From assembly GCA_963804955.1 (NCBI GenBank), contig CAWDSQ010000007.1:214546-278545 (forward strand): a DNA stretch of 64,000 nucleotides. Reading direction: 5' to 3'. The stretch comes from an uncultured delta proteobacterium (GTDB lineage: Bacteria > Desulfobacterota > WTBG01 > CAIYCZ01 > CAIRTM01). Both the position numbers and the translations under genes were made by a program. Position 1 is the first letter of the stretch. Every line of letters starts with the position of its first letter. Shown here piece by piece: positions 3,201 to 58,302 of the stretch. The notes under the pieces were generated by a model. The model did no database searches. It was not told the DNA's origin and was given only the letters and a program-made list of their open reading frames with translations.

Positions 3201-4100
3201 ATGGAATATTGTAAGCCCCCGCTTTCCTTTGAGGCACAGGCAGAGCTTCTCCTCTCACGGGGCCTTCAGGCAGATAAAAACGCTTTAATTGCTCGCTTGC
3301 AAGCGGTTAATTATTACCGGCTTAGCGCCTATCTTTATCCCTTTCGTAAGAACTCAAGCGATACATTCCAAAAAAATACTACTCTTGATCTTGTCTGGAA
3401 ACACTACACCTTCGACCGTCAATTACGAATCCTCGCAATGGATGCCATTGAGCGTATCGAAGTTGCGGTGAGGACTCAGCTTGTCTACCATTTTGCGCAT
3501 CGACATGGCGCGTTTGATTATTTAAAGCCAACCAACTTCCCGAAGCTAAGCCAAGACCGATTTAACCGCTGGCTTGTCGACATGAAAGATGAAATCAAGC
3601 GCAGCCGGGAGACATTTGCAGAGCACTTTAGTCAAAAATATGGCGATCATCATGAACTACCGCCTCTTTGGATGCTTTGTGAAGTCATGAGCTTCGGGAA
3701 AATGCTGACCCTTTTTAACGGCGTTGACGATGCCATGAGACGCTTGATTGCCCGCGAATATGGGCTTGAGGATAAGGTGCTTCAATCCTGGCTTGGTTCG
3801 CTCAACGTCATTAGAAACATCTGCGCTCATCATGGACGTCTCTGGAATCGCGAACTCGGATTTAAGCCTTTCATACCGCGCAGGCAGAAATATCCGCAGT
3901 GGCATGCTCCTGTAGAAATTGCCAATCACCGCATCTTTGCCATAATGACTATCCTTAAGTTTATGCTTAGGAAAGTTGCACCTACAAGCAAATGGGAGTG
4001 CCGGTTTAGCGACCTTCTCAGCCGTTATCCTGAAATACCGCTTGCGTCGATGGGGTTCCCGGGAAACTGGGAAAGTTGCGCAATTTGGAGCAACCAATAA
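3201..4100 (+). CDS. Abi_2 family (AbiD/AbiF-like) abortive infection protein
   Basis: 299 aa; motifs YYRLSAY, LWMLCEVMSFG, RNICAHHGRLWNR typical of Abi_2/AbiD-F; AT-richer than flanks. Confidence 0.75.
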   Translation: MEYCKPPLSFEAQAELLLSRGLQADKNALIARLQAVNYYRLSAYLYPFRKNSSDTFQKNTTLDLVWKHYTFDRQLRILAMDAIERIEVAVRTQLVYHFAHRHGAFDYLKPTNFPKLSQDRFNRWLVDMKDEIKRSRETFAEHFSQKYGDHHELPPLWMLCEVMSFGKMLTLFNGVDDAMRRLIAREYGLEDKVLQSWLGSLNVIRNICAHHGRLWNRELGFKPFIPRRQKYPQWHAPVEIANHRIFAIMTILKFMLRKVAPTSKWECRFSDLLSRYPEIPLASMGFPGNWESCAIWSNQ

Positions 4101-4153: not shown

Positions 4154-5384
4154 ATGCCGAGCACTATCATCCATCTTGACATGAACGCCTTCTTCGCCTC
4201 GGTGGAGCAGCAGTGCTAACCCCGCCCTGCGGGGCAAGCCTATTGCTGTCGTCGGCCGGGGCAGCCGCACCGTTGTCACCACGGCCTCCTATGAGGCCCG
4301 GGCTTTCGGCGTCAAGACGGGCATGAACAAATTTGAGGCGCAGCGGCAGTGCCCGCACATCATTTTCGTGGAAGGCAATAACCGGCGCTATGCCGAAACA
4401 TGCGCCGGGTTCACGGCCATGTGCCGCAGGTTTACCCCGCTGGTGGAGGTTTTTTCCATTGATGAAGTATTCATGGATGTGACCGGCTCCTTAAAGATTT
4501 TCTCCTCGGCCCGGGATATTATCGCACGTATTAAGCAGCAGATAAAAAGCCGGTACGGCCTTACCTGCTCGGCAGGCATCGCCCCCAATAAGCTGCTTGC
4601 CAAACTTGCCAGCGACCGGGAAAAGCCCGACGGACTGGTGGACATACCGCCTGACACCGTGCTGCCCTTTCTTGAAGGCCTGCCGGTCCAGGACCTGTGC
4701 GGCATCGGGAGCAAAACGCAGGCAAAGCTGGCGCTTCTCGGCATAACAACCTGCGGCCAGCTCGGCAGGGCTGACGCGAATCTGCTCTCCCGCCATTTCG
4801 GTGTGATGGGAGACATGCTGCGCCACATGGGAAGGGGAGAAGACGACAGCCCGGTGGTGCCTTTGGAAGAGACGCCCGACCCCAAGTCAATCGGCCACAG
4901 CCATACTCTTCCGAGCGATATAACCCGGCGCGAGCTGCTTGATTTCCATCTGCTGCGGCTCTCTGAAATGGTTGGCCGCCGGGCGCGCGATGGCGGCTTT
5001 GCCGGCCGCACCGTATGCCTTACTATCCGCTATAAGGATTTCACCACCTTCACCCGCAGAGTTTCTGTTTCGCATCCTATGTGCGAAACCCCGGATATAT
5101 TTGCCGCGGCAAAAGGCATTCTTGACGGCATCAAGCTTCAGCAGGCCGTGCGGCTGGTGGGCGTAGCGCTTTCACAGCTGGGAGAGATGCCGCGCCAGCT
5201 GCCCCTTTTTGCAAAGCAAACCAAAAGCCGCAAGCTTACCCGTGCGATGGATGAAATCAATAACCGCTTTGGTGATTTTACGCTGACCTGGGGCAGCATG
5301 CTTGAGCATGATGATTCTGAAGGCCACGGGGGCGTGATATCGCCTGCCTGGCGGCCTGAAGGCGTGCGAAAAATCACGTTTTGA
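4154..5384 (+). CDS. dinB: Y-family DNA polymerase IV (DinB); N-terminal 21 codons in another frame (frameshift near 4212-4220)
   Basis: MPSTIIHLDMNAFFASVEQQ(C*) then NPALRGKPIAVVG… in the +1 frame; rest of ORF 4323..5384 has Y-family palm/fingers/little-finger signatures. Confidence 0.85.
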
Positions 5385-8494: not shown

Positions 8495-9033
8495 ACAGGC
8501 TGCCCTGGCGTCAACCTCCAAAAACCGAGACATTGCAAAGCACGTGGTTGTGGCACATGAAAAGCGGGGCTGTAAAAGGCCCTGCTTTTTTTATGCATGC
8601 CGGTCAGTTGTCCTCCTTTTTACTCCTTTGTAATCTTAGGGTGAAAAAAAGTGACGGATTTATTGCTTTCAGAAGGGCCGTCGCTTATGGCGATGATTCC
8701 TGAAGATAGCAAGCCAAACGCAGCGTGTTTTGAATTACTCCCTTTCTGGGCGAAATCAAGTCACCCTCTATGCTGGCGTCTGCTGACTTTTTTGCAGCAA
8801 CATGCCGCCGTGGCACACAAGCACCCCACTCCGCGTCTTCACCGAAGGTAAAAAAACTCTAGAACCGCACCATCCCTCCGCCCCCATCATCATTTTTTAC
8901 TATTGATTTTAGCTATTGAATAACCTAAATAATATACTATTAGCCTCTTAAATTTTAGATTTTTCGTTTTTCTATTCCTTGTTCTTCTAAAAATTTCTAT
9001 TCATAAAAATTTTATCTGTGAAGGGAGGATGTC

Positions 9034-10134
9034 ATGAATCGTATTTTTCGCGCTTTTTCGTTAGCCTTGTCACTGGCACTCCTGGGAAGTTTCGCAATAC
9101 TATCTTCAGCGCCTCAACAAGCCGCTGCAGCCGGCACCCTTACTGTTGGCATTTATGGCGCAACTGAAGCAAGCTATTTAACAGATATCCAGAGCAAACT
9201 GAACAGCACCGGGTTTTTTAGCCAGGTGGATATTCACGAGATAGGCGCATACACTCCGACCTTGGCAGAACTACAAGGTTATCAGGCTGTGCTTGTGTTC
9301 TGTGATGACGATTTCCATAACAACACTACAATGGGCGATGTTCTGGCAGATTATGCAGATGCTGGCGGCGGCGTTGTGGTGGCCACCTTTGCTTTCACAT
9401 CCGGTTGGGGTGTTGGCGGGCGGATCTTAAGCGGCGGCTATCTGCCTTTTACGTTTAATGAGCAGAATGAAGGAACACTCCTCACTTTGATCCCGGACCT
9501 GCCGGCCCATCCCATTCTGGCAGGCGTCAATTCCTTCGACGGAGGATCTAACAGCTACCATGATGTCGTAACCCTAACGGCTGGCGCGACCCAGGTGGCT
9601 CATTGGAGCAACGACGTTCCGCTGGTTGCCACGAAACAGAAGGCCACCGGGATAAAAATCGTGGGTTTGAACTTTTTTCCACCCTCCAGCGATGCCAGAT
9701 CGGACTTCTGGAATGCAACAACAGATGGCGCCCTGCTGATGGGCAACTCGCTGGGCTGGGCGGCCTGTATTGATAATGACAATGACACCTATGGACAAGG
9801 CTGTGCTGCAGGGCCTGACTGCGACGATACGGATGTTTTTTACACCGACATCTGCCAGGACTGCCAGGTAAAGGTTATTCCCAAAACCTTTGGCAGGCTG
9901 ATTGGCGGCCAGGAGAAGAGCAGATGGCTGCTCATTATCGGGGAGCGGGGGATGGATTTCGGAGATAACGCCACGATCAGATGGGAGTCAAATGCGATAG
10001 AGGTTGTTAAGACGCATGTGTTTTTCAAACGGTTCATGTTAATGCAGGCGAAGTTCAACGGTGAGCCGCTTGAGATGCAGGACTACCGTGTGCTCGTCAA
10101 CAGCTGCGAAGGCAAGATCACCTGGGCGAGATGA
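9034..10134 (+). CDS. secreted protein with ThuA/GATase1-like N-domain and Myxococcales-type Cys-rich metal-binding motif (C-x-DNDNDTYGQGC…DCDDTD)
   Basis: Signal peptide MNRIFRAFSLALSLALLGSFAILSSA; Cys-rich motif at residues ~245-280. Confidence 0.55.
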   Translation: MNRIFRAFSLALSLALLGSFAILSSAPQQAAAAGTLTVGIYGATEASYLTDIQSKLNSTGFFSQVDIHEIGAYTPTLAELQGYQAVLVFCDDDFHNNTTMGDVLADYADAGGGVVVATFAFTSGWGVGGRILSGGYLPFTFNEQNEGTLLTLIPDLPAHPILAGVNSFDGGSNSYHDVVTLTAGATQVAHWSNDVPLVATKQKATGIKIVGLNFFPPSSDARSDFWNATTDGALLMGNSLGWAACIDNDNDTYGQGCAAGPDCDDTDVFYTDICQDCQVKVIPKTFGRLIGGQEKSRWLLIIGERGMDFGDNATIRWESNAIEVVKTHVFFKRFMLMQAKFNGEPLEMQDYRVLVNSCEGKITWAR

Positions 10135-10649: not shown

Positions 10650-11972
10650 GGTGCTTTTAGACCCAGGGCGGGTACGAAGGGCTTCACCAACTGGAATGCC
10701 TATCAAATCCTTTTCCTCCTGTTGTATGTCCTTTATGCCATCTTCAGTATCGCGCCTTCCGGCACGATGTCGTGATCAACATACTTCCACAGCGCTATGA
10801 GCAGTTTTCTGGCCAGCGCCACGATCCCTATTCGCCTCATCCGCTTGTTGCCCCCTCCAAAGCGCTCATGAAACCACGTGCTTAGCTTACTGCCAGGCTG
10901 CCATCTCAGCCATCCCCAGGCTAGCTCTATCAGCAAAGCTCGAATCCGCCGATTGCCCGCTTTGCTTATCCCTTGCTCAATCTGCATATCCCCGCTGCTG
11001 TAGGGCATTGGCGCAAGACCCGCTGCACCTCCCACCTGCTTCACATTCTTGAATTCCCGCCAGCCAAAAAACTCATAGATCAAATCCCATGAACTGATCG
11101 GCCCAATTGCCCGTATCCGGGCAAGCTTGCTTACCTTGCGCATTTGTTCAGGACTTGCCGCAAGCTGCCGCTTCTTTTCCTCTTGTATCTGCCTCAGCTG
11201 CCGGTCCAGCACCCCTATCCGTTCATACTCCCGCTTCATCTCCTGCACGATATGCTCTGGCAGTTTGCTGCCATCCCAGGCTCGCACTTCCTCAAGCAGC
11301 TTCAGGAATTTACTGCCTACCTCTGCATGTATCCCATACAATACAAGTAATGACTTTATCCGGCTTACATGTGCTCCCCGTTCCTTTAACAGCCGATCCC
11401 GCTCTCGGTTGAGTCGCCGTTCATCTTCCTGTTCCTGTGTCGGAACCCGTACCACACTCCAGACTTTCTGCTCTCCTCCCAAGTGCCGTATCAGCATGGT
11501 TAACAACTTTAACCCATCTACCCGGTCCGTCTTGGCCCGCCGATGCCGCCGGTTCACTTCGATACTGGCCGAGTCCACCACGATATTCTTTATCCCTATG
11601 CTCTCCAAATACCGATGTATCCAAAACCCGTCTCGTCCCGATTCATAACAGCTGTATATGGCGCAATCTTCATCCAGTCTAAAATGCTTCCGGGCCTTGA
11701 CCAGCTCTTCCTTAAACTCTTCAAGATCTGCTGATGTTATTGTTCGCTCCCTCCTGCGTTGCCCGTCCCCAAACGTCAGTTTCCATTTCTTGTTGGACAG
11801 TTCAAGGGATATGTACAAAACCTGCTTACCTGTGCTATTCTTTGCCTCGGTTTGGATCATTTGATTGTTCGCCATGTTTGTCTCCTTTATGCTGAAAGTT
11901 ATTGACGTGACTTTTTCAGCATATCCGAGACGTGACGCCTGTCAAATGATCCGTTCCTTCACAGTATCTACA
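10650..11972 (-). mobile_element. IS110-family insertion sequence (ends approximate; 5' end defined by identity with the truncated copy at 38159-38460)
   Basis: Contains intact DEDD transposase; 5' terminus 'gtagatact(g/a)tgaagga(a)cggatcatttgacaggcgtca…' shared with second copy. Confidence 0.8.
10733..11875 (-). CDS. IS110 family transposase
   Basis: 380 aa; N-terminal DEDD RuvC-like domain, C-terminal …GLAPMPYSSGD… motif typical of IS110. Confidence 0.9.
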   Translation of the reverse strand: MANNQMIQTEAKNSTGKQVLYISLELSNKKWKLTFGDGQRRRERTITSADLEEFKEELVKARKHFRLDEDCAIYSCYESGRDGFWIHRYLESIGIKNIVVDSASIEVNRRHRRAKTDRVDGLKLLTMLIRHLGGEQKVWSVVRVPTQEQEDERRLNRERDRLLKERGAHVSRIKSLLVLYGIHAEVGSKFLKLLEEVRAWDGSKLPEHIVQEMKREYERIGVLDRQLRQIQEEKKRQLAASPEQMRKVSKLARIRAIGPISSWDLIYEFFGWREFKNVKQVGGAAGLAPMPYSSGDMQIEQGISKAGNRRIRALLIELAWGWLRWQPGSKLSTWFHERFGGGNKRMRRIGIVALARKLLIALWKYVDHDIVPEGAILKMA

Positions 11973-32015: not shown

Positions 32016-35000
32016 ATGAAATTTACCGATCTGTTCATACGCCGCCCTGTTCTCGCGCTGGTTATTAATTTAATAATCATCATCGCTGGGTTGCAGGCTA
32101 TCCGCTCTGTCAATGTCCGCCAGTTTCCGCGCAATGAAAACTCCTCCGTCACGGTCAAGACCGTGTATGTCGGGGCAAACGCCGAGCTGGTGCGCGGCTT
32201 TATCACCACGCCCCTTGAGCGCGCCATTGCCTCTGCCGACGGCATCGATTATATGCAGTCCCAAAGCAGCCAGGGTCTTTCAAGTATCACCATCCGGCTG
32301 AAGCTCAACTATGATCCGCTCAAGGCCCTTGCCGAGGTCAGCTCCAAGGTTGACCAGGTTCGGCAGGACCTTCCTCCCGAATCAGAAGTGCCGATCATTG
32401 ATGTCGTATCGGCGGACAGCCAGTTTGCGGCAGCCTATCTCAGCTACGAGTCCGACATTCTGGATCAGAACCAGATAACCGACTATCTCATCCGCATGGT
32501 GCAGCCCCGGCTTTCGGCCATTGAAGGCATGCAGCGGGCCCAGATCCTCGGCGACCGCACATTTGCCATGCGCATCTGGCTGCAGCCCGAGCGCATGGCC
32601 GCCTTCAATATCAGCCCGCTGCAGGTCCGGCAGGTTCTGGCCTCCAACAATTATCTTGCCGCCGTCGGCCAGACAAAAGGCGCGCTCATTCAGGTGAACC
32701 TGACGGCCAATACCGATCTGCATACGGCCGAGGAGTTTAAAAAACTCGTGATCCGCGAACAGGACGGCGCAATCGTGCGGCTTGAGGACATAGCCCAGAT
32801 CGCTCTCGGCGCCCAGGACTATGAATCCGAGGTTACGCTCTCGGGCCAGACCGCGGTTTTTATGGCCCTGTACCCGCTGCCCACTGCCAATACCCTCGAT
32901 GTTATAAATCGCGTCCGCACGGAGATGGAAACAATAGAGAAAAATCTGCCCGAGCGGCATCCGGATGCGCATCGGCTATGACGCGACCGATTACATTAAA
33001 AACGCGATCAGCGAAGTGCTCGGCACGTTGATCGATACCCTGCTCATCGTCATGGTTGTTATCTTTCTGTTTCTCGGGTCGATGCGCGCCGGTGTTTATC
33101 CCGATCGTTGCCATTCCCTTGTCACTTATCGGCGCTGTTTTTGTAATGCAGGCCTTCGGCTTTACCATTAACCTGCTGACGCTGCTTGCTATCGTGCTGT
33201 CGGTGGGGCTGGTGGTTGATGACGCCATCGTGGTGGTTGAAAACGTGGAGCGCCATTTGAGCGGAGGGCAAATCCCCCCTTGATGCGGCGCTGCTCGGGG
33301 CGCGCGAGCTTGTGGGCCCGATTATCGCCATGACGGTCACCTTAGCGGCAGTGTATGCGCCCATCGGGCTGCAGGGCGGCCTTACCGGCGCTTTCTTCAG
33401 GGAATTTGCCTTTACCCTTGCCGGGCGCGGTCATGATTTCGGGCATTGTGGCGCTCACCCTGTCGCCCATGATGGCTTCAAAAATGCTCAAGCCGGGCTT
33501 GAGCGAGCATGGGCTTGCGGGCCGTATCGAGCGCGATTTTGCCCGGTTCAAGGAACTGTACGGCCGCCTGCTGAACGTAACCCTGGATGCGCGGCCGGCA
33601 GTGTATGTGGTGTGGCTGGTGCTGAGCCTTGCGGCCATACCCATGTTTATCATGTCTCCCGCCGAGCTTGCTCCCATGGAGGATGAGGGCGCCATATTCA
33701 GCATTGTCGATGCTCCGGCAAATTCGGCCCTTGAACTGACCGCTCATTTTATCCATGCTGCAGATAAAATTTTTCAGGCCATTCCTGAAACGGACTTTAC
33801 CTTTGAGGTTATATTCCCCAGCTCGGGTTTCGGCGGTGTGATTACAAAACCCTGGAAGCGAGCGCAAGCGCACGGTGCAGCAGATACTGGCCGAGATGCA
33901 GCAGAAGCTGCGCTGCTATACCCGGCGTACGGCTTATGTCGATCACCCCGCCGCCACTGCCCGGCGGAGGTGATTTTCCGGTCGAGTTTGTCATAACCTC
34001 GACAGCCAGGCCTGAAGAGATTCTCGCCATTGCCCAGCAGATGCAGCTGAAGGCTATTGAGAGCCGCATGTTCGCTTTTCCGCCGCTTATTGATCTGAAA
34101 ATGGATCAGCCGCCAGTCCGAGCTTGTCATTGATCGCGACAAGGTGGCGGACCTTGGCCTCAATCTCCAGCAGGTCGGCGCTGATGTGGCCTCGATGCTC
34201 GGGGGCAACTATGTCAACCGCTTTAATATTGCCGGTCGCAGCTATAAGGTCATCCCGCAGATCCAGCGCAGCGACCGTCTCAACCCGGACCAGCTGCAGG
34301 AGATGTATATCAACGGGCCCAAGGGCCAGCTCGTGCCGCTCCGTACGGTCGCGGAAATAAAAAACTCCACGGTTGCCCGGTCGCTCAACCGCTTTCAGCA
34401 GCTCAACAGCGTGAAAATCAGCGGCGTGGCAATACGCCCTCTTGATGAGGCGCTGGGTTTTCTTGAAGCCGAAGCCGCAAAAATTCTGCCCGACGGCTAC
34501 ACGATCGATTATACGGGCGAGTCGCGCCAGCTCAGGACCGAAGGGCAGAAATTTCTGCCGGCCTTTCGTCCTTGCCATGGTGCTTATTTTTCTGGTGCTT
34601 GCAGCACAGTTTAACAGCTTTCAGCGATCCGCTTGTCATTCTTGCCGGCTCAGTGCCCCTGGCCATGTTCGGCGCGCTTATCTTCATGTTTCTGAAAATG
34701 CCCAGCCCCAATGTACCATTTTTCACAAACGGCTGGACCACGACGCTCAATATTTACTCTCAGGTGGGGCTGGTGACGCTGATCGGGCTTGTTTCAAAAA
34801 ACGGCATTCTTATCGTCGAGTTTGCCAACAAACTGCAGGAGCAGGGCCTTGCCAAGCGCGCAGGCCGTAATCGAGGCTGCCAGACCCGCATCCGCCCGAT
34901 TCTCATGATCAGTGTTGCAACCATTGCCGGCCACTTCCCTCTGACGCTGGTCACCGGCGCCGGCGCCGCAGCCAGAAACTCCATCGGCCTCGTGCTTGTG

Positions 35001-35087
35001 GGCGGCATGGCCATCGGCACCCTGTTTACCCTTTTTGTTATCCCCTCGATCTACATGCTTATCGCCCGCGACCATTCAAAAAACTGA
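32016..35087 (+). pseudogene. RND (HAE1/AcrB-like) efflux permease, fragmented into at least 7 ORFs by multiple indels
   Basis: ORFs 32016..32981, 33056..33283, 33355..33996, 34144..34614, 34572..35087 etc. all carry AcrB-like TM/periplasmic segments. Confidence 0.8.
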
Positions 35088-44536: not shown

Positions 44537-44634
44537 ACTAATCTCTCCCCTGGTAGTGTTCTTAATGTCGTCAGCACACCAGCGCCACAGGCTATGTTCC
44601 CTGAAAAAGGCAGCCAATCAAGCCACCCTCTATG

Positions 44635-44798
44635 AGATTGTGTCGCAATTAAAAAAAGATGTCATCTCGACCAAAGGGAGAGATCTTTGCCTGAAGCAAA
44701 AGCAAAGCCTTAAGATTGCTGCGCGGTGGCGCAACCTGCGGTCTCACCGCCTGCGGCGGATTCGAAATGACAGTACAAAACTAATTATGACACAGCCT
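44635..44798. mobile_element. MITE-like element copy C (164 bp; TIR agattgtgtcgcaat / attatgacacagcct; TSD CTATG)
   Basis: flanking CTATG direct repeats at 44630-44634 and 44799-44803. Confidence 0.7.
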
Positions 44799-45425
44799 CT
44801 ATGCTGGCGGTTGCTGCCTGCCTCCCCGCCACCGGCTCGAACCATCGCATGTCTCTTCTTGTTTAATAGGGTCAAAGTCAGGCTGCCGTCAAGGGCTTCA
44901 TTGATATTTTCGGCATTATTGCAATAAATCTGAATGAGTTTCCGGCCATTGCTGCTGTGGTTTTGAGTAAAGAAAGGCGGCCTGAAACAGGCATTCATTG
45001 ACAAAAAAAAACCGGCTGCAACAACCGCCGGCCAAAACACCTGAAAAACAGTGCTGTGGGGGTGTTGAAAAACCCCATTAAGTCATTCTGAGCGCAGCGA
45101 AGAATCTCTATCTTTTTGAATTTTCTAAGCCCGAATGGGACCTTCACTTTGCAGATGCGCTCCTGAAAACCATGGCTATCCCCTGTTTTCCTGTCCGCAA
45201 AAGCCGTCACCACCAAAAAAAATCATGAATAAAATTTTTTGCGTGCTATATAGAAATCTTAAGCAGCAATGCACGGGCACAAGATAGTGCGCTAAAGACA
45301 CTTCAGGGTCAGGAGTCTCGTCTGACCTCCGCCCCGCTGTGGAGCACAGAGTTTGTTGTAAATTTTTTATCATATCTACAAATAGAGTTAAATGAAGTTA
45401 AACGTATAAAGCAGAAGAGGGTTCT

Positions 45426-49229: not shown

Positions 49230-49508
49230 TCAGTGATAATCCCTGTAATCGACGATCACAGCATCTGCCCCTTCAAATTGAAAAGTAACCCGCCAGTTGC
49301 CGTTTACCCGGACCGACCAGGAGTCCTTCTCTTTGCCCGGCAGCCGGTGCAGTTTAAAGCCGGGCAGATTCATGTCCTCGGGGCATGCTGATGCGTCCAG
49401 GCGGTCAAGTATGCGGGCCAGCCTGGGGGCATGGTCCGGCATTATTTTACTGCAGTCATCATGGTGGAAAAACTTTTCCAGCCCTTTATGCCTGAATGAT
49501 TTAATCAT
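49230..49508 (-). CDS. higB: HigB toxin (RelE/ParE superfamily, 'plasmid maintenance system killer')
   Basis: MIKSFRHKGLEKFF…; toxin-first order with higA. Confidence 0.8.
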   Translation of the reverse strand: MIKSFRHKGLEKFFHHDDCSKIMPDHAPRLARILDRLDASACPEDMNLPGFKLHRLPGKEKDSWSVRVNGNWRVTFQFEGADAVIVDYRDYH

Positions 49509-49751
49509 GTCTCCATATATAACATGTAACCTAATGCGTTACAAGCAGTTTTAGCAATTGCCAGTGTATGCTGCTGTTGGCATGCGGATCAGCATGAAAA
49601 CTGTGCATAGCGCGGATAGTAAAAACAAAGCGTGCTGACACCTGTTCTTGTTTTTTCGTTCTATGGTTTTCCCGATGGATGTTCCCGGTTGTTTTTTAGA
49701 CCCACTAAAATACAGGTTGCATAATATATAAAAACTTATATAATTGAAAAT

Positions 49752-50327
49752 ATGAATACTGTCGTGAAAGCACTTAAGTTCATTGGGTCGAGTCTGGACG
49801 ATCTACGGAATTTCCCGGATGAAGCCCGGCGGGCTGCCGGATTTGAGTTTCATGCGGTTCAAAGCGGTTTTGATCCAAACGACTGGAAGCCCATGCAGGC
49901 CATCGGCCCCGGCGTAAAAGAGATTCGTATTCATGTGCTGGGCGAGTGGCGCGTTATCTATGTAGCTTAGCCAACAACCACCCGCATAGAGCCTGTGTCG
50001 CAATTTACTTTGCTGTCATCTCGACCGAAGGGAGAGATCTTTGTAGTAAGTAAAATCAAGGGGCTTAAGATTTCTCACCGCCTGCGGCGGATTCGAAATG
50101 ACATTAATAAATCAATTGTGACACAGCCTCATAGCGGGGGGGGGATTTCGCTAAAGCGAAATCAAAAAACACATAGTGTTTATGTTGCCTTTTTCAGAAA
50201 CGCATGTTTCTGAAATCAGTTCAGCGACGCAGTTTATGTGCTGCACGCATTCAAGAAAAAAAGTCAAAAAACGAGCCGCCAGGATATCGAACTGGCGCGT
50301 CAAAGGTACAACCGCATTGGAGGTTAA
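49752..50327 (+). pseudogene. Gp49-like (PF05973, HigB-family) toxin gene interrupted by a 140-bp MITE; N-part 49752..49970, C-terminal end (…AVYVLHAFKKKSQKTSRQDIELARQRYNRIGG*) resumes at ~50220
   Basis: N-terminal ORF ends in-frame inside MITE; C-terminal conserved block found in-frame downstream of MITE, stop overlaps antitoxin start region. Confidence 0.7.
49990..50129. mobile_element. MITE-like element copy A (140 bp; TIR agcctgtgtcgcaat / attgtgacacagcct; TSD CATAG)
   Basis: CATAG at 49985-49989 and 50130-50134; 96% identical to copy B. Confidence 0.75.
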
Positions 50328-50331
50328 AGTA

Positions 50332-50616
50332 ATGAACGATGACATTATTAAATCTTCCGGCAGCGTTTTTGCTGATCTCGGTTTTCCACCGGATGAAGCC
50401 GCTATTCTTCAGATGCGTGCCGACCTTATGGCTGATCTGCGCAAACTCATCAAAGCGAAAAAATTAACGCAGGCCAAAGCGGCAACAATTTTCGGGGTGA
50501 CGCAGTCCAGGGTATCAGATCTCATGCGCGGCAAATGGGAGAGATTCAGTCTTGAAATGCTCATTACGCTTGCAACAAAGGCGGGCATGCATGTCAGCTT
50601 GAAAACAGCGGCATAA
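50332..50616 (+). CDS. HTH-XRE antitoxin partner of the Gp49-like toxin
   Basis: …LTQAKAATIFGVTQSRVSDLMRGK…. Confidence 0.7.
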   Translation: MNDDIIKSSGSVFADLGFPPDEAAILQMRADLMADLRKLIKAKKLTQAKAATIFGVTQSRVSDLMRGKWERFSLEMLITLATKAGMHVSLKTAA

Positions 50617-50654: not shown

Positions 50655-50900
50655 GTTTTTGCTGAGCGGAGAGGGAATTTATTAGATCAAAAAGCCATGA
50701 TGCAGGCAATAGATTCCCTGAATCAACGCTATGGCCGCAACACGGTTCAGTTTGCATCATCGGGCATAGATAAGCGCTGGAAAATGCTGCAGTCGCAAAA
50801 ATCGCCGTGCTTTACCACATGACGGGGCGAGATACCGGCTGTGAAGGCATGAGACAGACAGGCGGTGCAGGCCAGATAGTGATTTATGTATGAACGCCCC
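50655..50900 (+). repeat. UmuC-like 3'-end remnant, copy 3 (…AMMQAIDSLNQRYGRNTVQFASSGIDKRWKMLQSQKSPCFTT*RGEIPAVKA*)
   Basis: best-preserved copy; W codon replaced by TGA. Confidence 0.55.
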
Positions 50901-50995
50901 GCAGTCCTACTCAAACAATTCAACTAATTCAACAACGTTAAGTTCCTAAAAAATTTTCTTGAAAAGCATTAAATACAACCGTCCCCTTTTAGATG
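50880..50995 (+). repeat. 110-bp direct repeat, copy 1 (contains 21-bp core aattcaactaattcaacaacg)
   Basis: approx 90% identical to 55878..55990; core also at 54697-54717. Confidence 0.65.
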
Positions 50996-51057
50996 TTTAC
51001 AGCCAATTTCTGCAACCTGGGGGGGGGAGGGCGTTTGTGTACTTTGTAGGATGGCCC

Positions 51058-52229
51058 CTAAGTGCCGTCATTCTCAACAAGTGAATAGCTTGTGCTTCTG
51101 CCTCCTGCGGGATCCTTCTTCAGCAGGTTCTGTTTCACAAGGTCATCAATATCGCGACCGGCAGTATCCTGAGAACATTTTGTGATTTTTGCCCATTTTG
51201 ACGACGTGAGTTTTCCTTCGAATCCATCAATCAATAGATTGAGCATATGTCGTTGGCGATCGTTCAACGGCTGCTGCGCAAGTTTTTTCCAAAGAGTTGC
51301 TTTGCGGATGACATTTGCCAATATGGTCTCGGCGCCATCGAACGCTCGATTGAGGCAGCTCAGGAACCAATCGAGATATTCCGTGATATCAAGATCGCCT
51401 TTCTGCATTTCTTCCAGACGAGTCGTAGTATTTTCCCTGTTCTGCCTTTATCTGGGCAGAGATGCTGTAAAAGCGCTGAGCGCTGCGCTCTGAGCGAGCC
51501 AGCATCATGTCAGCGAGCGCGCGACCGATGCGACCGTTTCCATCGTCGAAGGGATGAATGGTCTCAAACCAAAGATGCGCTGTGGCGGCTTTAAGAATGG
51601 GATCGACATTGGGTTGCTCTGTATTAAACCACTTTATGAACGCACCCATTTCTTTATCGATACGCGTTGCGGCAGGCGCTTCGTAGTGAACATGTTCGCG
51701 TCCATAGGGGCCGGAAACAACCTGCATGGGCCCGGATTCAGCCGTTCGCCATTTGCCGACAGTAATCTTCAAAAGGCCGCTGTATCCTGTCGGGAACAAT
51801 GCTGCGTGCCAACCGAAGAGCCTCTCTTTTGTAATCGGTTTATCGTAGTTCTGTGTTGCATCGATGATCATTTGAACAACACCATCGACATTTCTGTCTG
51901 ACGGTGTCAGTGCGCCGATATCGACGCCAAGCCGCCGCGCGAGAGAAGAACGAACCTGATCCCGATTGAGCTGCTGCCCTTCAATTTCGCTGGATTTTAC
52001 GACTTCCTCCGTCAGGGTGTCGCAAAACGGCTTCGTCGCGCAGCTTGATGCCGAAAGCCTCTATGCGCCCAAAGAGCTGCCCTTGCCGATAACGTACAGC
52101 AGCGAGTTTTTGTGCAAGATGGTCGTTATCCCAACGAAAATGGGGCCAATCGGCTCTTTGATATATGTAGGTAGTCATAATCTCCGCACCTTTCGCGTAG
52201 ATTATAGCACTTTTTCTCCGCATAAGCAA
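51058..52229 (-). pseudogene. Fic/DOC family protein (DUF4172 N-domain + Fic HPFxxGNGR + C-terminal wHTH) split into three ORFs (51981..52229, 51389..51871, 51058..51408)
   Basis: …YIYQRADWPHFRWDNDHLA… (DUF4172), …HPFDDGNGRIGRA… Fic motif; overlapping frames. Confidence 0.75.
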
Positions 52230-52517
52230 TCATATTCGCCGCATATATTGCGGAGAATAAAGCGGCTAATCTCCGCAATTGATTGATCCTTGCTTTGGGC
52301 TGGGCAGACTAGAGATGAGGGTTGTTCAATACAAAGTTTGCCGCAGGAAGCACTTCCTGGGTGGGGGGATTTAGTAAGTGGTTGCCTGCTCTAACTCCCG
52401 CACGTTGTGCAAAATATGTATTCAGGAGCTGCGGAAAAGCTAAGTCAACAACGTCCCCCTAGTTAGACCTTTCTGCTCTATGTTAGTAGATGATAAAACC
52501 CTTTTTCAAATACCCCT

Positions 52518-53516
52518 TTACAGCCGGTTGCGACGTCTGGCTGAATGCCGATCCATGCGCGAATGTTCGTCATCCTGCTTCCTGCCTGCGGGCTTTGCAA
52601 AAGCTGCAAGGTGCAGTATGTGCCCCTGGTGCTCAAAGGCAAACCCGATCACCGAGTCCGATTCAAGCCGTATGTCTTCACCCTCAGATACGGATTTGCG
52701 ATGCTCTGCTGTTGCATCTGCCATGCCGGCGATAAACTGCCTTGCTGCGTCACCATGAGATCCTTCAAGCTTCAGATCAGGATCATACCAGTCCGTGGCA
52801 TCAAGGGCGTAGCTCTTCACAAGCTTTGCAAACACCTTCCCGAACGTGTCGGGTCCGGCAAAGCTGTCAAGGCCTGCAACTTTCCCGTTTATCAGAAATA
52901 CAGCACCGGCCTGATTTTCGGCCCTGGTAAAGTTTTGCAGGTAGTCTTCAAGGGAAATTCTGTCCTTTTCGTAAATTTCTGACATGGCCATGCTACCGGA
53001 TACGGCCTTCCTGCGCCGCGCCTTCTTGTCTATGGAATTCCATATCTCTCCCTGGTCAGAACAATAGGAGGCATTAATTTTGAGCGAGTGGTTTACGTGA
53101 ACGGCCTTCTCCGCCCTGATATTCGGACAGAGCAGGCGCTCATGGCTGAAAAACTTGCCGGAGGCGTAGGACCACCGGCCCTGTTCCACGCAGCTCACCG
53201 GGATTATCACCTTTGACATGGCAGCGATGAGAATGGTGGCGTTGACGATACGGTTCTGCTTGGCCCCTACCAGCTCTTCGCCGTCCAGGATGAGCACCTG
53301 CTTGCTTGCCTTATTGATCACCTGCAGCTCAGGCACTGAGCCTCCCGTGCTCACCTCTCCAACTTCGATGAGCCCGCCCTGCAGCGCCTCGTCAAGAAGC
53401 AGGTAGTCGGCCTGTTCCGTACCACTGGTCAAAAGCGGCACCATGCTCAAATTTTTATAGGCTTGAGCCGGCCCCGTGGTGATGGTTGTGATATAGGTTT
53501 TAAGACTTTCGTTCAT
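52518..53516 (-). CDS. hypothetical protein (332 aa), first gene of an operon divergent from the WYL regulator
   Basis: no recognisable motif by eye; intact long ORF. Confidence 0.5.
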   Translation of the reverse strand: MNESLKTYITTITTGPAQAYKNLSMVPLLTSGTEQADYLLLDEALQGGLIEVGEVSTGGSVPELQVINKASKQVLILDGEELVGAKQNRIVNATILIAAMSKVIIPVSCVEQGRWSYASGKFFSHERLLCPNIRAEKAVHVNHSLKINASYCSDQGEIWNSIDKKARRRKAVSGSMAMSEIYEKDRISLEDYLQNFTRAENQAGAVFLINGKVAGLDSFAGPDTFGKVFAKLVKSYALDATDWYDPDLKLEGSHGDAARQFIAGMADATAEHRKSVSEGEDIRLESDSVIGFAFEHQGHILHLAAFAKPAGRKQDDEHSRMDRHSARRRNRL

Positions 53517-53674
53517 GGCCTCTCCTTTGACTTTTCCGGTTAATCTTACCTTTAAGAATAGCAGGGCACTGTGTCAGGGAAGGTCAAAACGAATTAAAAA
53601 ATATTGTTATTTATTGTAAAAAATTGATATATTTTAATTTCATTGTGGTCTTTTTTTACGTCAGGGAGGATTTT

Positions 53675-54652
53675 ATGCCACGAGGAGATCAGCTGGCGCG
53701 TCAGTGGAAAATTATTCAGACCATAGTCTCGTCAAAAAAAGGCAAAACGGCAACCGAGCTGGCAACCGAACTCGAAGCAAACCCGCGAACCGTCTACCGC
53801 GACCTTCAGGCATTGCAGACAGCGGGGTTTCCGATATACACGGAAAGAGTGGGCGATAAAAATTGCTGGACACTGCTTGATGCCATTAAAAACCAGATCC
53901 CGGTCCCGTTCGCATTTACCGAGCTCATGGCTCTGTATTTTTCAACCGATATGCTCAAAGCCCTTCACAATACAATTTTTTATGAAAACCTGGACTCACT
54001 GGCTAAAAAAATAAAAACCATCCTGCCTCCCGAGTCGCACAGATTCCTTGAAAACGCGCGCAAGACTTTTTCTGTTCAGAAGAAGCACTATAAGGACTAC
54101 GGCGGCTTCAAAGAGATAATCAACAAGGCTTCAGATGCCGCGCTGAAGCAGAAATGCGTCACACTTGTCTACTGCTCCATGCCGGAGAAAAAAGAGACCC
54201 GGCGCACCGTAGATCCCTACCGCATCTGGTTTTTCAATGAGACCTTTTACCTGATCGGCTACTGCCACCTGCGCAAGGAGCTCCGCTCTTTTGTGCTCGA
54301 CCGGGTCAAATCCCTCACCGTTACTGATGAGGAGTTTGTCATCCCTGAAGATTTTGATTTTGATGCCCTGATGAAGGGCAGCTTCGGCGTTATCACCGGC
54401 CCGACTGAATCCGTGCGGATACAATTTGAGAAAGAAGTGGCCGGCTATATTGAAGAAAAGGTGTGGCACAGCAGCCAGCGCATTAACCGGGCCTCTGACG
54501 GGGCAATTATCTTTGAGGCCGACGTTGCAATAAATGAAGAATTTAAAAACTGGATTTTAAACTGGGGATCAAACGCGATGGTTCTGGCGCCCGCATCGCT
54601 TGTTGCGGAGATTCAGGCAGAGATCGCCAAAATGGCTAACAGGTATAGCTGA
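53675..54652 (+). CDS. WYL-domain transcriptional regulator (wHTH-WYL-WCX; BrxR/CapW/PafBC-like)
   Basis: N-terminal wHTH (…ATELATELEANPRTVYRDLQALQTAGFPI…), WYL core (…RTVDPYRIWFFNETFYLIGYCHLRKELRSFVLDRV…), C-terminal WCX. Confidence 0.8.
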   Translation: MPRGDQLARQWKIIQTIVSSKKGKTATELATELEANPRTVYRDLQALQTAGFPIYTERVGDKNCWTLLDAIKNQIPVPFAFTELMALYFSTDMLKALHNTIFYENLDSLAKKIKTILPPESHRFLENARKTFSVQKKHYKDYGGFKEIINKASDAALKQKCVTLVYCSMPEKKETRRTVDPYRIWFFNETFYLIGYCHLRKELRSFVLDRVKSLTVTDEEFVIPEDFDFDALMKGSFGVITGPTESVRIQFEKEVAGYIEEKVWHSSQRINRASDGAIIFEADVAINEEFKNWILNWGSNAMVLAPASLVAEIQAEIAKMANRYS

Positions 54653-54819
54653 TTTATGGATGGATGCCCCCAGGATATTTCCTGCAGCACAGATAATTCA
54701 ACTAATTCAACAACGCCCTTTATGCTCCCAATATGAAGCTAATAAAGAGGGGGATGCAGGTAACCCCTATTCCAAGTGGCCACGACTAGGGGGTTTTGGG
54801 TGGCCGCCGGGGTTTATTT

Positions 54820-55427: not shown

Positions 55428-55597
55428 ATTTTATATTGTATACATATTTATATACATTGCAAGTGTAAATAAACCGCTTCATTTTATTAGTGGCTGTTGT
55501 CCCGGATAAATTCCGTGAAGTGTCTGTCAAACAGGGGTAAGTTCAGCTGTCCACGATTATTGCCTGAAAAACAAAACACCCTTTAATCCAGGATACA

Positions 55598-55826
55598 GTT
55601 TAAGAAAGAAGTGGCCGGCTATATTGAAGAAAAGGTGTGGCACAGCAGCCAGCGCATAACCCGGGCACCTGACGGGTCAATTATCTTTGAGGCCGACGTT
55701 GCAATAAATGAAGAATTTAAAAACTGGATTTTAAACTGGGGATCAAACGCGATGGTTCTTGCGCCCGCATCGCTTGTCTCGGAGATTCAGGCTGAGATCG
55801 CCAGAATGGCTGGAAGGTACAGCTGA
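55598..55826 (+). pseudogene. duplicated 3' fragment (last ~72 codons) of the WYL regulator gene, about 93% identical to 54433-54652
   Basis: MAGYIEEKVWHSSQRITRAPDGSIIFEADVAINEEFKNWILNWGSNAMVLAPASLVSEIQAEIARMAGRYS vs WYL C-terminus. Confidence 0.75.
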
Positions 55827-55877
55827 GGAGATTTGCTAGAAAACGAAACGGACTGAGCGATTTCAATTTGCTACAAT

Positions 55878-55990
55878 ATGAACGCCTCGCAGACCTACTC
55901 AAGCAATTCAACTAATTCAACAACGTTATGCTCCCTAAAAAATTTTCTTGAAAAGGATTAAATAGAACCGTCCCCTTTTACTTAAAGGAA
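55878..55990 (+). repeat. 110-bp direct repeat, copy 2
   Basis: tatgaacgcctcgcagacctactcaagcaattcaactaattcaacaacgtta…ccgtccccttttac. Confidence 0.65.
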
Positions 55991-56515: not shown

Positions 56516-57469
56516 TTACCCCAACTCCTTATATTCTGTCAGCCTTTTAAATCGCCACTCCAGCCCGTCCATGCGGGGATAATATTTTTTATCCCTCGGC
56601 AGGATGATGGGCTTTTTATCCAGATCGAGCAATTCCTGGTAATCGCGGTTGCGTTTGTCGAGAAGCTTTGAAACATGCCACTTCAAATCCGGGCCGGGGG
56701 AAAGGATGTTTTTGTCCAGCGCCCAGTGAAAGCTGGGGGCAAGGGCAATGCCGTTGCAGGGATCATTGTCGCGTGATTCGGAGAAGGGGATAATATGCGC
56801 GGCTTCAACCATGACCGACCCATCGGGCAGGATCACCCGCCAGCCCGAGGCGGCGCAGCGGTAGTCATATGCTTCGCGCACCACGCGTGAAAACGCCGCA
56901 TCGCGGACTTTGTCGTTGTAGGTGCTGCAACATTCAGCCACTTTTTCAGGTTCCTTCAGGCAGTTTTCATATACTGCTATCTGCTGCTCTTCGGCTACAA
57001 CGGTGCGGATCTGTTCGCGGCTTGCCGGGAACCACCGGTCTATGAGAGTTTGTCGCAAAATATCGCGATCCGGGGCAGAGGAGATCAGGCTGAACAGATC
57101 ATCATCAAGGAATGCATATTCAAAATTTTCCGTTATCTGCGATGGGCCGCGCACGGTTGACAGCGCTGCGACTACAGCCTCGCGGCCGGGAATCGGCTTG
57201 AGATGCCAGAAGGATTCCCCTTTGTATAGATGAAAAAATGGAAAATACGGATTGCAGGCATCGCCTGGCTGCTGCACTGTCTGGAAAAATGATTTAAAAA
57301 TATCAAGAAGGTTTTGGTTATAGAGGATTTTATTTTCTTTGAGAAACCCTGCCTCGGCCAGGGCCAGTACGGCCAGCAGCATGACCGGCTTGTGGGGGCT
57401 GACATGCTCCCCTGAACGGTTTACATGCAGCTTCGAGAAGGCGTGTATGTAGTATTCAAGATCAGGCAT
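56516..57469 (-). CDS. HNH endonuclease (HNH_2-like) with N-terminal helical domain; possible restriction-type nuclease
   Basis: …YRCAASGWRV…VEAAHIIPFSESRDNDPCNGIALAPSFHWALD… HNH motif. Confidence 0.6.
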   Translation of the reverse strand: MPDLEYYIHAFSKLHVNRSGEHVSPHKPVMLLAVLALAEAGFLKENKILYNQNLLDIFKSFFQTVQQPGDACNPYFPFFHLYKGESFWHLKPIPGREAVVAALSTVRGPSQITENFEYAFLDDDLFSLISSAPDRDILRQTLIDRWFPASREQIRTVVAEEQQIAVYENCLKEPEKVAECCSTYNDKVRDAAFSRVVREAYDYRCAASGWRVILPDGSVMVEAAHIIPFSESRDNDPCNGIALAPSFHWALDKNILSPGPDLKWHVSKLLDKRNRDYQELLDLDKKPIILPRDKKYYPRMDGLEWRFKRLTEYKELG

Positions 57470-57589
57470 GGCAGCTCATGTAATAATGAATATTATTGAA
57501 CTGTTCTTGTGAAGCAGGAAGAGTATAAAATAGAATAAAAGGCTAAAGCAACTACTCTTTTGTTATTTTTAAATAAATCAGTAAAATCT

Positions 57590-57765
57590 TTGCGAGCTGT
57601 GAGTTGGGAGTCGTGAGTTGGGAGTTGTGAGTTCGGAGTTCGGAGCGCAGGGGCACGGTGCACGTGCCGTAAAGTTCGGAGTTGGGAGTTGGGAGCGTAG
57701 GGGCACGGTGCGCGTGCCGTAAAGTTGGGAGTCGTGAGTTCGGAGTTCGGAGTAAAAATTCAGCA
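57590..57765 (+). ncRNA. candidate sRNA / tandem repeat: about 20 heptad units GAGTTSG(GAGT) carrying 10 GGA motifs, interrupted by two copies of a 30-nt palindromic unit (cgcaggggcacggtgcacgtgccgtaaagtt)
   Basis: tandem periodicity seen directly; GGA density resembles CsrA-sequestering sRNAs; strand and ends uncertain. Confidence 0.3.
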
Positions 57766-57803
57766 GCCGGGAGTCAGAAAAAACAGCCACCTCTCCCCCA
57801 TCA

Positions 57804-57942
57804 GAGACTGTGTCGCAATTAACTTTGCTGTCATCTCGACCGAAGGGAGAGATCTTTGTAGTAAGTAAAATCAAGGGCTTAAGATTTCTCACCGCCTGCG
57901 GCGGATTCGAAATGACATTAATAAATCAATTGTGACACAGCC
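57804..57942. mobile_element. MITE-like element copy B (139 bp; TIR agactgtgtcgcaat / attgtgacacagcct; TSD (A/C)TCAG)
   Basis: flanks atcag | ctcag. Confidence 0.75.
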
Positions 57943-58011
57943 TCTCAGTGGCGTAGGGGGAGAAAACCGGCAAGTTGGAAATTGCTGCACTACGGAGGCA
58001 GAAGATTGCTC

Positions 58012-58125: not shown

Positions 58126-58202
58126 TGGCGGGGACGACGGGACTCGAACCCGCGACCTTCGGCGTGACAGGCCGACGTACTAACCAACTGTACTACGCCC
58201 CC
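58126..58202 (-). tRNA. tRNA-Asp (anticodon GTC), CCA encoded
   Basis: cloverleaf folded by hand: acceptor GGGGGCG/CGTCCCC(G-T wobble), anticodon loop CTGTCAC, T-loop GGTTCGAGTCC. Confidence 0.9.
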
Positions 58203-58229
58203 GCGTATCATATGCTGTTGTCAAATTTA

Positions 58230-58302
58230 TGGGCGATACTGGGTTCGAACCAGTGACCCTCGGCTTGTAAGGCCGATGCTCTCCCAGTTGAGCTAATCGC
58301 CC
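58230..58302 (-). tRNA. tRNA-Val (anticodon TAC)
   Basis: GGGCGATTAGCTCAACTGGGAGAGCATCGGCCTTACAAGCCGAGGGTCACTGGTTCGAACCCAGTATCGCCCA. Confidence 0.9.

Follow-up and report, generated by a model that had tools for sequence, protein, structure and literature searches.

A WYL regulator–ARPP-1 pair with a DriD-like promoter layout beside an independent SoFic-type Fic gene in a delta proteobacterial island

WYL regulators often govern defence islands, and two described representatives of the winged helix-turn-helix (wHTH)-WYL-WCX architecture frame the locus examined here. DriD of Caulobacter crescentus (PDB 8tp8, 9pfq) is a transcription activator of this kind that is switched on by single-stranded DNA (ssDNA); it recognises the box ATACGAC-N7-GTCGTAT at promoters that do without a -35 element and in which the spacing between site and -10 is constant, and it controls a regulon including didA, recA and other genes. 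BrxR and CapW have the same architecture and stand beside the gene they control, the BrxR box being formed by 10-11-bp repeats around a 5-bp spacer downstream of the -10. The ARPP family was named and first described within predicted conflict systems in an in silico study (Iyer, Burroughs, Anantharaman, Aravind 2022, Viruses 14:1977, PMC9503650), which noted an absolutely conserved Cys and Gln, predicted a duplicated four-stranded β-meander core with a β-barrel insert, and listed ‘a WYL domain TF’ among three conserved two-gene ARPP neighbourhoods outside the systems centred on ADP-ribosylglycohydrolase (ARG). SoFic, finally, is described as a gene that stands alone and encodes an AMPylating toxin or abortive-infection factor, accompanied at most by a small antitoxin (EcSofic-AS1, PMC12249575). 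The present analysis concerns positions 51058-54652 of a 64,000-nucleotide (nt) stretch of DNA from an uncultured delta proteobacterium (hereafter the window), a segment filled by three groups of open reading frames (ORFs): a WYL regulator, a 332-residue ARPP protein, and a Fic gene in pieces.

Scans of the window for ORFs and with Pfam, PADLOC, NCBIfam and Rfam, together with comparison to other genomes, show the locus to be a further member of the published WYL–ARPP pair lying next to an independent SoFic-type Fic gene. A preliminary description of this region had seen in it a BrxR/CapW-like WYL regulator divergent from a two-gene effector operon, in which an unknown protein was followed by a Fic protein. 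That observation is real in part: the divergent pair exists; the three-gene operon only reflects which genes happen to be neighbours in a mosaic island.

The WYL–ARPP pair and its divergent promoter region

The regulator gene (53675..54652, plus strand) encodes 325 amino acids in which Pfam recognises the succession wHTH, helical linker, WYL and WCX. Its ORF is open from a TTG (53624..54652, plus strand), and on this longer frame the domain matches (HTH_11 at residues 26-75, WYL at 1e-18, WCX at 1e-16) are all above cut-offs. The true start is the ATG at 53675 (MPRGDQ...), from which the 325-residue product is identical to a public gene call. Divergent from this ATG, with 158 nt in between, starts the 332-residue gene (52518..53516, minus strand), both ORFs being where the preliminary description had placed them. 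The product of the 332-residue gene, taken there for an unknown protein with no recognisable motif, matches ARPP-1 (PF20208, formerly DUF6569) end to end (E 2e-92, 310 bits vs a cut-off of 27, profile positions 2-297 of 297), and a plasmid homologue carries the annotation ‘DUF6569 family protein’. An identical ARPP protein is, like the regulator, on public record. Compared with the published neighbourhood, the window offers the same two families, with WYL directly beside ARPP and divergent from it, and no new component.

The extent of this pairing was followed in 81 ARPP loci, 80 from species-representative genomes (taken from more than 585 ARPP matches) and one from a metagenome. In about 24 of the 81, ARPP has a WYL homologue no more than about 1.3 kb away, in divergent, co-directional upstream or downstream arrangement. 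Among immediate ARPP neighbours WYL+WCX is the top Pfam family (14/73 upstream, 3/67 downstream), followed by MerR (5), ADP-ribosylglycohydrolase (3), R-P phosphatases (2), ERCC4 (2) and HD (2), and the WYL proteins beside ARPP are close relatives of one another (hmmsearch E 1e-94 to 1e-143). WYL–ARPP is a real, recurrent and functionally linked unit, already published as such. ARG-centred systems, comprising an ARG, a rhodanese-phosphatase and ARPP, draw on the same ARPP family, and the link surfaces in the 81 loci as three with ADP_ribosyl_GH and two with an R-P phosphatase as ARPP neighbour; in the window, the ORF list and Pfam scan reveal no ARG, phosphatase, Macro, NADAR or restriction endonuclease gene accompanying ARPP. 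Two further features of the family's surroundings were seen. In five loci (among L002-L081) a MerR-family regulator stands directly upstream of ARPP in place of WYL, suggesting that the stress-sensing regulator in front of ARPP is exchangeable. An ORF of about 85 amino acids (MTMTTHARTRMQQRGLP...) follows ARPP in L082 (2137-2394), L078 (~8985-9221), L051, L072 and L075, and is not present after ARPP in the window.

When the divergent spacers of the window and of loci L001, L004, L006 and L007 were aligned, the block TGTGACCGnATCTGTCACA stood out. In the window, the operator-like palindrome TTTGACCTTCCCTGACACA occupies 53570..53588 (minus-strand reading 53588->53570), 72 nt ahead of the ARPP start codon, and has the form TTTGAC-N7-GACACA, the family consensus being TGTGAC-N7-GTCACA. 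In every case TAnnnT comes 10 nt after the palindrome, and an extended -10 element, TGcTATTCT, can be read from the window sequence at 53555..53563 (53563->53555, minus strand) and aligns across the same five loci, with no -35 hexamer found at 17-18 nt from it. Upstream of annotated ARPP starts the consensus recurs in 18 of 75 loci (at most two mismatches), mostly 30-90 nt away, where a background of 0.049 per kb would yield about one by chance; in co-directional WYL->ARPP loci it sits between the two genes, and elsewhere across the window sites occur at chance level only. The WYL gene itself has a promoter-like site on the plus strand (TTGTTA-18-TATATT with TG before the -10, 53604..53633), put forward as a consensus match only. 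It is the palindrome at 53570-53588 that the window WYL protein presumably binds. This palindrome, its DriD-like geometry and the boundaries of the unit were defined in the present analysis, Iyer et al. giving no operator, promoter or experimental data. To this extent the earlier proposal of a WYL-controlled unit stands, backed by the recurrent link between WYL and the 332-residue protein and by the conserved operator-like palindrome; its inclusion of Fic as an operon member does not.

Locus L001, whose ARPP orthologue is 80% identical to that of the window, offers a view of this region after loss of the regulator. At L001 9734-9860 all that is left of the WYL gene is some 115 nt riddled with stop codons, next to a highly conserved ARPP promoter and palindrome; the promoter core is far better conserved than the synonymous divergence of the two ARPP genes (dS 0.86) would predict. 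With a ratio of nonsynonymous to synonymous substitution (dN/dS) of 0.14, ARPP is under purifying selection between the window and L001.

Comparison with solved structures brings the regulator closest to DriD (8tp8/9pfq), matched weakly but over its full length (phmmer E 1.5e-9, 40.8 bits), while BrxR is matched at E 5e-4 over the WYL domain alone. In the alignment the base-reading DriD residues Arg37 and Arg41 are kept (PRTVYR) and Glu40 is replaced by Tyr, a change that parallels the one in the half-site, from CGAC in DriD to TGAC at WYL–ARPP. The sites share the spacing xGAC-N7-GTCx, and the ARPP promoter, devoid of a -35 and with constant spacing from site to -10, resembles those dependent on DriD. 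A difference lies in reach, since DriD controls a regulon and the sole evident target here is the neighbouring ARPP. The label ‘BrxR/CapW-like’, apt as regards domain architecture, position beside the controlled gene and a surrounding island of defence-type genes, is therefore too narrow: with 6-bp half-sites around a 7-bp spacer upstream of the -10, the operator geometry matches DriD and not the BrxR box. Neither BREX nor CBASS was found near the locus in the window ORF, Pfam and PADLOC scans.

ARPP belongs to a large family, with 10,624 representative clusters (made at 50% identity) matching at E<=1e-3 and 3,020 at E<=1e-30. Residues E54, G84, Q87, R89, V107, C109, E111, R114, Q155, W159, G204 and G279 are invariant family-wide, and C109, Q87 and Q155 remain so in 108 representatives that are 33-51% identical to the window protein. 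A confident AlphaFold2 model (pLDDT 86.5, pTM 0.87) has an order of secondary structure compatible with the published layout (strands 18-109, helices, strands 202-219 and 269-307). Foldseek retrieved no match to this model in PDB or BFVD, the family profile gave no matches among PDB sequences at E<=10, and no PADLOC or NCBIfam model matched. Domain fusions were uninformative, one protein carrying REC and MORN repeats and other extensions lacking a Pfam domain, and the literature located on ARPP consists of PMC9503650 only, no experimental paper having been found. The neighbours ERCC4, a RecQ C-terminal fragment and HD, together with the published HIRAN and ARG/phosphatase contexts (PMC9503650), point to a sugar-phosphate or DNA-end substrate, which Cys109 would attack.

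The Fic gene and the module boundaries

Downstream of ARPP and on the same strand, as the preliminary description had it, lies a DUF4172-Fic-wHTH gene (51058..52178, minus strand; 372 amino acids after repair), present as three ORFs rather than one: DUF4172 (51981..52229), Fic (51389..51871) and the C-terminal wHTH (51058..51408). The frame is broken by two single-base insertions (+1 frameshifts), at ~52016-52022 and ~51418-51421, in keeping with a span from the ATG at 52178 to the stop at 51058 of 1121 nt, or 1119 + 2. With one placeholder residue at each insertion site, the repaired protein aligns over residues 1-366 with its closest solved relative, the ‘Fic family protein’ of PDB 8cil (E 1e-102). 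Its catalytic motif HPFDDGNGRIGR (of the HPFx(D/E)GNGR type), whose integrity after indel repair the preliminary description had left to be checked, is intact, and so is the inhibitory-helix motif SSEIEG. The PADLOC SoFic model is matched at 1.3e-47 (covering 18-350 of 361). The likeness to SoFic encompasses an N-terminal helical domain with (S/T)xxxE(G/N), the Fic core, a C-terminal wHTH, and a stand-alone position in a defence and toxin–antitoxin (TA) island; the window Fic differs in having its frame broken twice, and it is not an equivalog of Shewanella SoFic (NCBIfam NF046030, 52.6 bits vs a cut-off of 550). By its motifs and profile matches the gene classifies as a SoFic-type class II AMPylase.

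The frameshifts are probably assembly errors. Housekeeping genes of the window are broken as well: Lon is split once near 59945 by an apparent +1 insertion, and an AcrB-type pump (32016-35087) is spread over at least four ORFs (profile positions 2-312, 470-599, 725-864 and 875-1020 of 1021). With Lon and AcrB also broken, at about one indel per kb, two breaks in Fic are unremarkable. A Y-family polymerase ORF (4323-5384) begins at profile position 50, and together with AcrB and Lon it indicates frequent indel errors in the assembly. In the protein database no intact, 100%-identical Fic was found, the best match (95%) being on other contigs, and the Fic fragments are not among its entries.

The edges of the WYL–ARPP unit and of Fic are marked by a repeat. 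Its motif CTAATTCAACAACG, with five matches in the window vs 0.47 expected, occurs at 50924, 52440, 54702 and 55912 in one orientation, within copies of the dispersed sequence AATTCAACTAATTCAACAACG(TCCCC) at 50917-50937, 52440-52456, 54695-54715 and 55905-55925. These four copies separate Fic, ARPP–WYL, a HicAB pair with a WYL fragment, and the next gene from one another, so that the junction repeats flank exactly WYL plus ARPP. Between the ARPP and Fic units the copy reads CTAAGTCAACAACGTCC (52440..52456, plus strand); at the other edge of the WYL–ARPP unit the repeat directly follows the WYL stop codon (54650..54718, plus strand); and downstream of the Fic stop lies the longest copy (50867..50991, plus strand), which is 88-96% identical to 55877-55980. 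The exact 21-mer core of the repeat was recovered in 23 metagenome contigs (L090-L112) carrying one or two copies each, and both flanks are unrelated between contigs, indicating that the repeat lies where recombination or insertion has joined sequences. For some copies there is an inverted partner, CGTTGTCAnGAATTAAT, which would allow a hairpin. An integron-like cassette array would have attC hairpins with RYYYAAC/GTTRRRY core sites behind every cassette, together with an IntI integrase. RYYYAAC (as ATTCAAC) is present twice in the repeat, in an arm polarity not canonical for attC, and no integrase or IntI was found among the window ORFs scanned.

A second trace of recombination adjoins the regulator. 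The 3'-terminal 236 nt of WYL recur as an orphan, WCX-only duplicate (55591..55826, plus strand, 93% identical to 54417-54652) that encodes a 71-residue ORF (Pfam WCX 1e-15), the HicAB pair sitting between it and the intact gene. This copy looks like what recombination has left of a second, otherwise lost WYL allele or module.

Two modules or one operon

We consider it likely that the segment holds two independent modules, brought next to each other by chance in a variable chromosomal island: the WYL–ARPP unit and a stand-alone Fic. The first (52457-54689) would be a self-contained pair in which a homodimeric wHTH-WYL-WCX factor, encoded back to back with ARPP-1/DUF6569, binds TTTGAC-N7-GACACA 10 nt upstream of the extended -10, where a -35 would normally sit. 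The factor is proposed to switch ARPP when its WYL/WCX pocket takes up a nucleic-acid-type ligand, most likely ssDNA arising from DNA damage or phage replication, ligand-dependent activation being slightly favoured over repression because DriD, whose promoter layout is similar, is an activator. ARPP would be the only output, a predicted enzyme whose β-barrel insert carries the invariant Cys109, Glu111, Arg114, Gln87 and Arg89, and whose cysteine may, following Iyer et al. 2022, target the ribose- or deoxyribose-phosphate part of ADP-ribose adducts or of damaged DNA ends, to the benefit of repair or immunity. The second module (~50990-52440) would be a SoFic-type class II Fic AMPylase of the known abortive-infection or toxin type, with a constitutive-looking promoter of its own. 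Within this scheme the domain identities, the recurrent adjacency of WYL and ARPP, the conserved palindrome with its constant spacing and the end of synteny at the ARPP stop codon are observed; we infer the binder of the palindrome, its ligand, the direction of regulation and the chemistry of ARPP.

Several observations weigh against parts of this scheme. Of the eight ssDNA-contact residues of DriD that can be placed in the alignment, about four are kept (one tentatively), one is conservatively changed and three are lost; Y168, Y192 and R204 persist, while R207 is V, Y240 is I and R189 is E in the window protein, and with a pocket only partly conserved the ligand may differ from that of DriD. 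The palindrome also precedes ARPP genes with no WYL nearby (16/53, vs 9/22 with WYL, at up to three mismatches), so that its binder could be another factor or a WYL protein encoded elsewhere. An extended -10 can fire without an activator, making repression by occlusion equally possible. As for the enzyme, the structure and sequence searches found no relative of known function, and its chemistry is conjecture.

Whether Fic belongs with WYL–ARPP was the central claim of the preliminary description, according to which ARPP and Fic form a two-component effector in a single WYL-controlled operon, jointly de-repressed upon infection or DNA damage. The two genes do share a strand, and since no intrinsic terminator is predicted between them, read-through into Fic is possible. 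However, the 339 nt from the ARPP stop to the Fic ATG include a copy of the junction repeat as well as a promoter proper to Fic, of the extended -10 type and near consensus (TTGCTT-17-TGcTATAAT, 52201..52229, minus strand, 23 nt before the ATG at 52178), which was read from the sequence and escaped the promoter scanner, its -35 fitting at 3/6 positions only. A WYL-type palindrome is missing from the 350 nt before Fic, the best candidate having five mismatches. None of the closest ARPP loci with context (80%, 73%, 68% and 58% identity) has a Fic gene beside it, and the 79%-identical blastn alignment of L001 9734-10992 with window 53789-52525, a block made up of ARPP, the promoter spacer and the remnant of the first ~115 nt of WYL, ends at the ARPP stop codon. 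Other genes common to L001 and the window (HNH_2, SNase) come in a different order, which shows the region to be a mosaic. Conversely, Fic homologues at 86% identity adjoin type I restriction-modification genes and those at 71% a Gp49/HTH_37 TA pair, with no ARPP or WYL near. More difficult to dismiss is the distribution of Fic-domain genes in the 81 ARPP loci, where all six that were found fall in the 399 kb sampled up to 3 kb from ARPP and the outer 477 kb has none. One of them, a RhuM-Fic gene, lies 270 nt downstream of ARPP (L009), and in L035 a Fic_N-Fic-wHTH gene that shares 31% identity with the window Fic in the Fic and C-terminal regions stands directly beside WYL, divergent from ARPP. 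Even so, these six are of different architectures (RhuM-Fic, Fic_N-Fic-MarR, Fic-IclR-HTH and short forms), none with DUF4172, and Fic accounts for one of 140 immediate ARPP neighbours; the co-occurrence expected by the preliminary description was thus found often for ARPP with WYL, and rarely, with Fic proteins of mixed types, for ARPP with Fic. Fic is independent of the WYL–ARPP unit, and we read its proximity to ARPP as an island effect, although this does not fully explain the weak signal, which leaves the joint operon a slim chance.

Two other explanations concern the pair itself. It is highly improbable that the adjacency is meaningless, with WYL regulating itself or other genes and ARPP an unregulated accessory gene beside it by chance. 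Some 70% of the sampled ARPP loci do lack an adjacent WYL, and the palindrome is not confined to loci with one. Yet a WYL gene in about 24 of 81 loci compares with well under one expected for a 2.6-kb neighbourhood (estimated from how many WYL genes genomes typically have), the WYL proteins concerned are mutually close, and the palindrome follows the ARPP promoter even where gene order differs. A possible, if rather doubtful, reading would make WYL–ARPP an anti-phage defence of the CapW/BrxR type, in which the WYL protein is a repressor released by ssDNA and ARPP a toxic or abortive effector. It would suit the frequent role of WYL regulators in defence islands, the first description of ARPP in conflict systems (PMC9503650), a genomic position of ARPP that varies between close relatives, and the company of HicAB, HigBA-like, MNT (PDC-S09), SoFic and an HNH gene resembling those restricting phosphorothioated DNA, all near tRNAs. 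It fits less well with the fact that ARPP lacks a PADLOC match and is nearly absent from mobile elements (one match in 72,556 plasmid records, none among 50,697 phage records), with an operator that lies upstream of the -10 at the DriD spacing, unlike the BrxR box, and with the ordinary metabolic genes that make up many ARPP neighbours elsewhere. An unrepressed toxin is also hard to square with L001, in which WYL has decayed and ARPP and its promoter are kept. This pattern and the DriD-like promoter argue mildly against a toxin held by a repressor, and mildly favour ARPP as an inducible, non-toxic enzyme.

Extending the two-module reading, WYL–ARPP could be a widespread switch of one sensor and one enzyme, in which a DriD-like factor senses ssDNA and induces a cysteine enzyme of unseen fold that acts covalently on ribose or deoxyribose lesions (ADP-ribosylated or abasic DNA, ADPr-type adducts). 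This is speculation, and more likely wrong than right. If true, thousands of environmental bacteria would possess a new response to damage or phage that is independent of SOS, and the weak, non-random proximity of Fic would reflect a common substrate theme, namely nucleotide-derived modifications of protein and DNA. ARPP-1/DUF6569 merits attention as a large family with invariant, catalytic-looking residues for which the searches run found no relative of known structure. The locus is a compact unit for its study, with regulator, operator, promoter and enzyme within 2.2 kb, and the predicted 19-bp operator and DriD-like promoter layout provide handles on the inducer of ARPP, on the role of WYL as activator or repressor, and on the function of the enzyme. 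Its interest is modest, in that it adds an operator and promoter architecture to a published pair, itself of a kind experimentally untouched.

The surrounding island

The preliminary description had placed the locus inside a TA/defence island next to a tRNA, and indeed it is surrounded by a HicAB pair, a HigBA-like pair and an MNT nucleotidyltransferase (PADLOC PDC-S09), with tRNA-Asp and tRNA-Val at 58126-58302 as the only matches of the Rfam scan of the window. A palindrome, TGTAACCTAATGCGTTACA, directly upstream of the HigB-like gene (49230-49508), at 49525-49543, probably serves this TA pair as operator. On the other side of the locus, an HNH_2 protein of 317 amino acids (56516-57469, minus strand) resembles restriction endonucleases that bind phosphorothioated DNA (NF045808, 96 bits, under the cut-off of 180), and its segment is 85% identical in DNA to part of L001. 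An Abi_2 (Abi-like) gene at 3201-4100 and an IS110-family transposase at 10733-11875 indicate by their positions that accessory and defence-type genes extend beyond the island at 44-58 kb.

Non-coding repeats of other kinds are interspersed with these genes. Tandem 14-nt and 50-nt repeats (AGTTGGGAGTCGTG...) occupy 57588-57772, between the HNH gene and the region of the tRNAs and of one copy of an element resembling miniature inverted-repeat transposable elements. This element, of about 165 nt, is present three times (44623-44813, 49978-50144 and 57793-57958) and ends in terminal inverted repeats of about 17 nt (GAGrCTGTGTCrCAATT ... AATTGTGACACAGCCTC). The third copy adjoins the tRNA genes, and the middle one splits a truncated RelE/HigB-like ORF (49752-49970) from its HTH partner (50176-50616).

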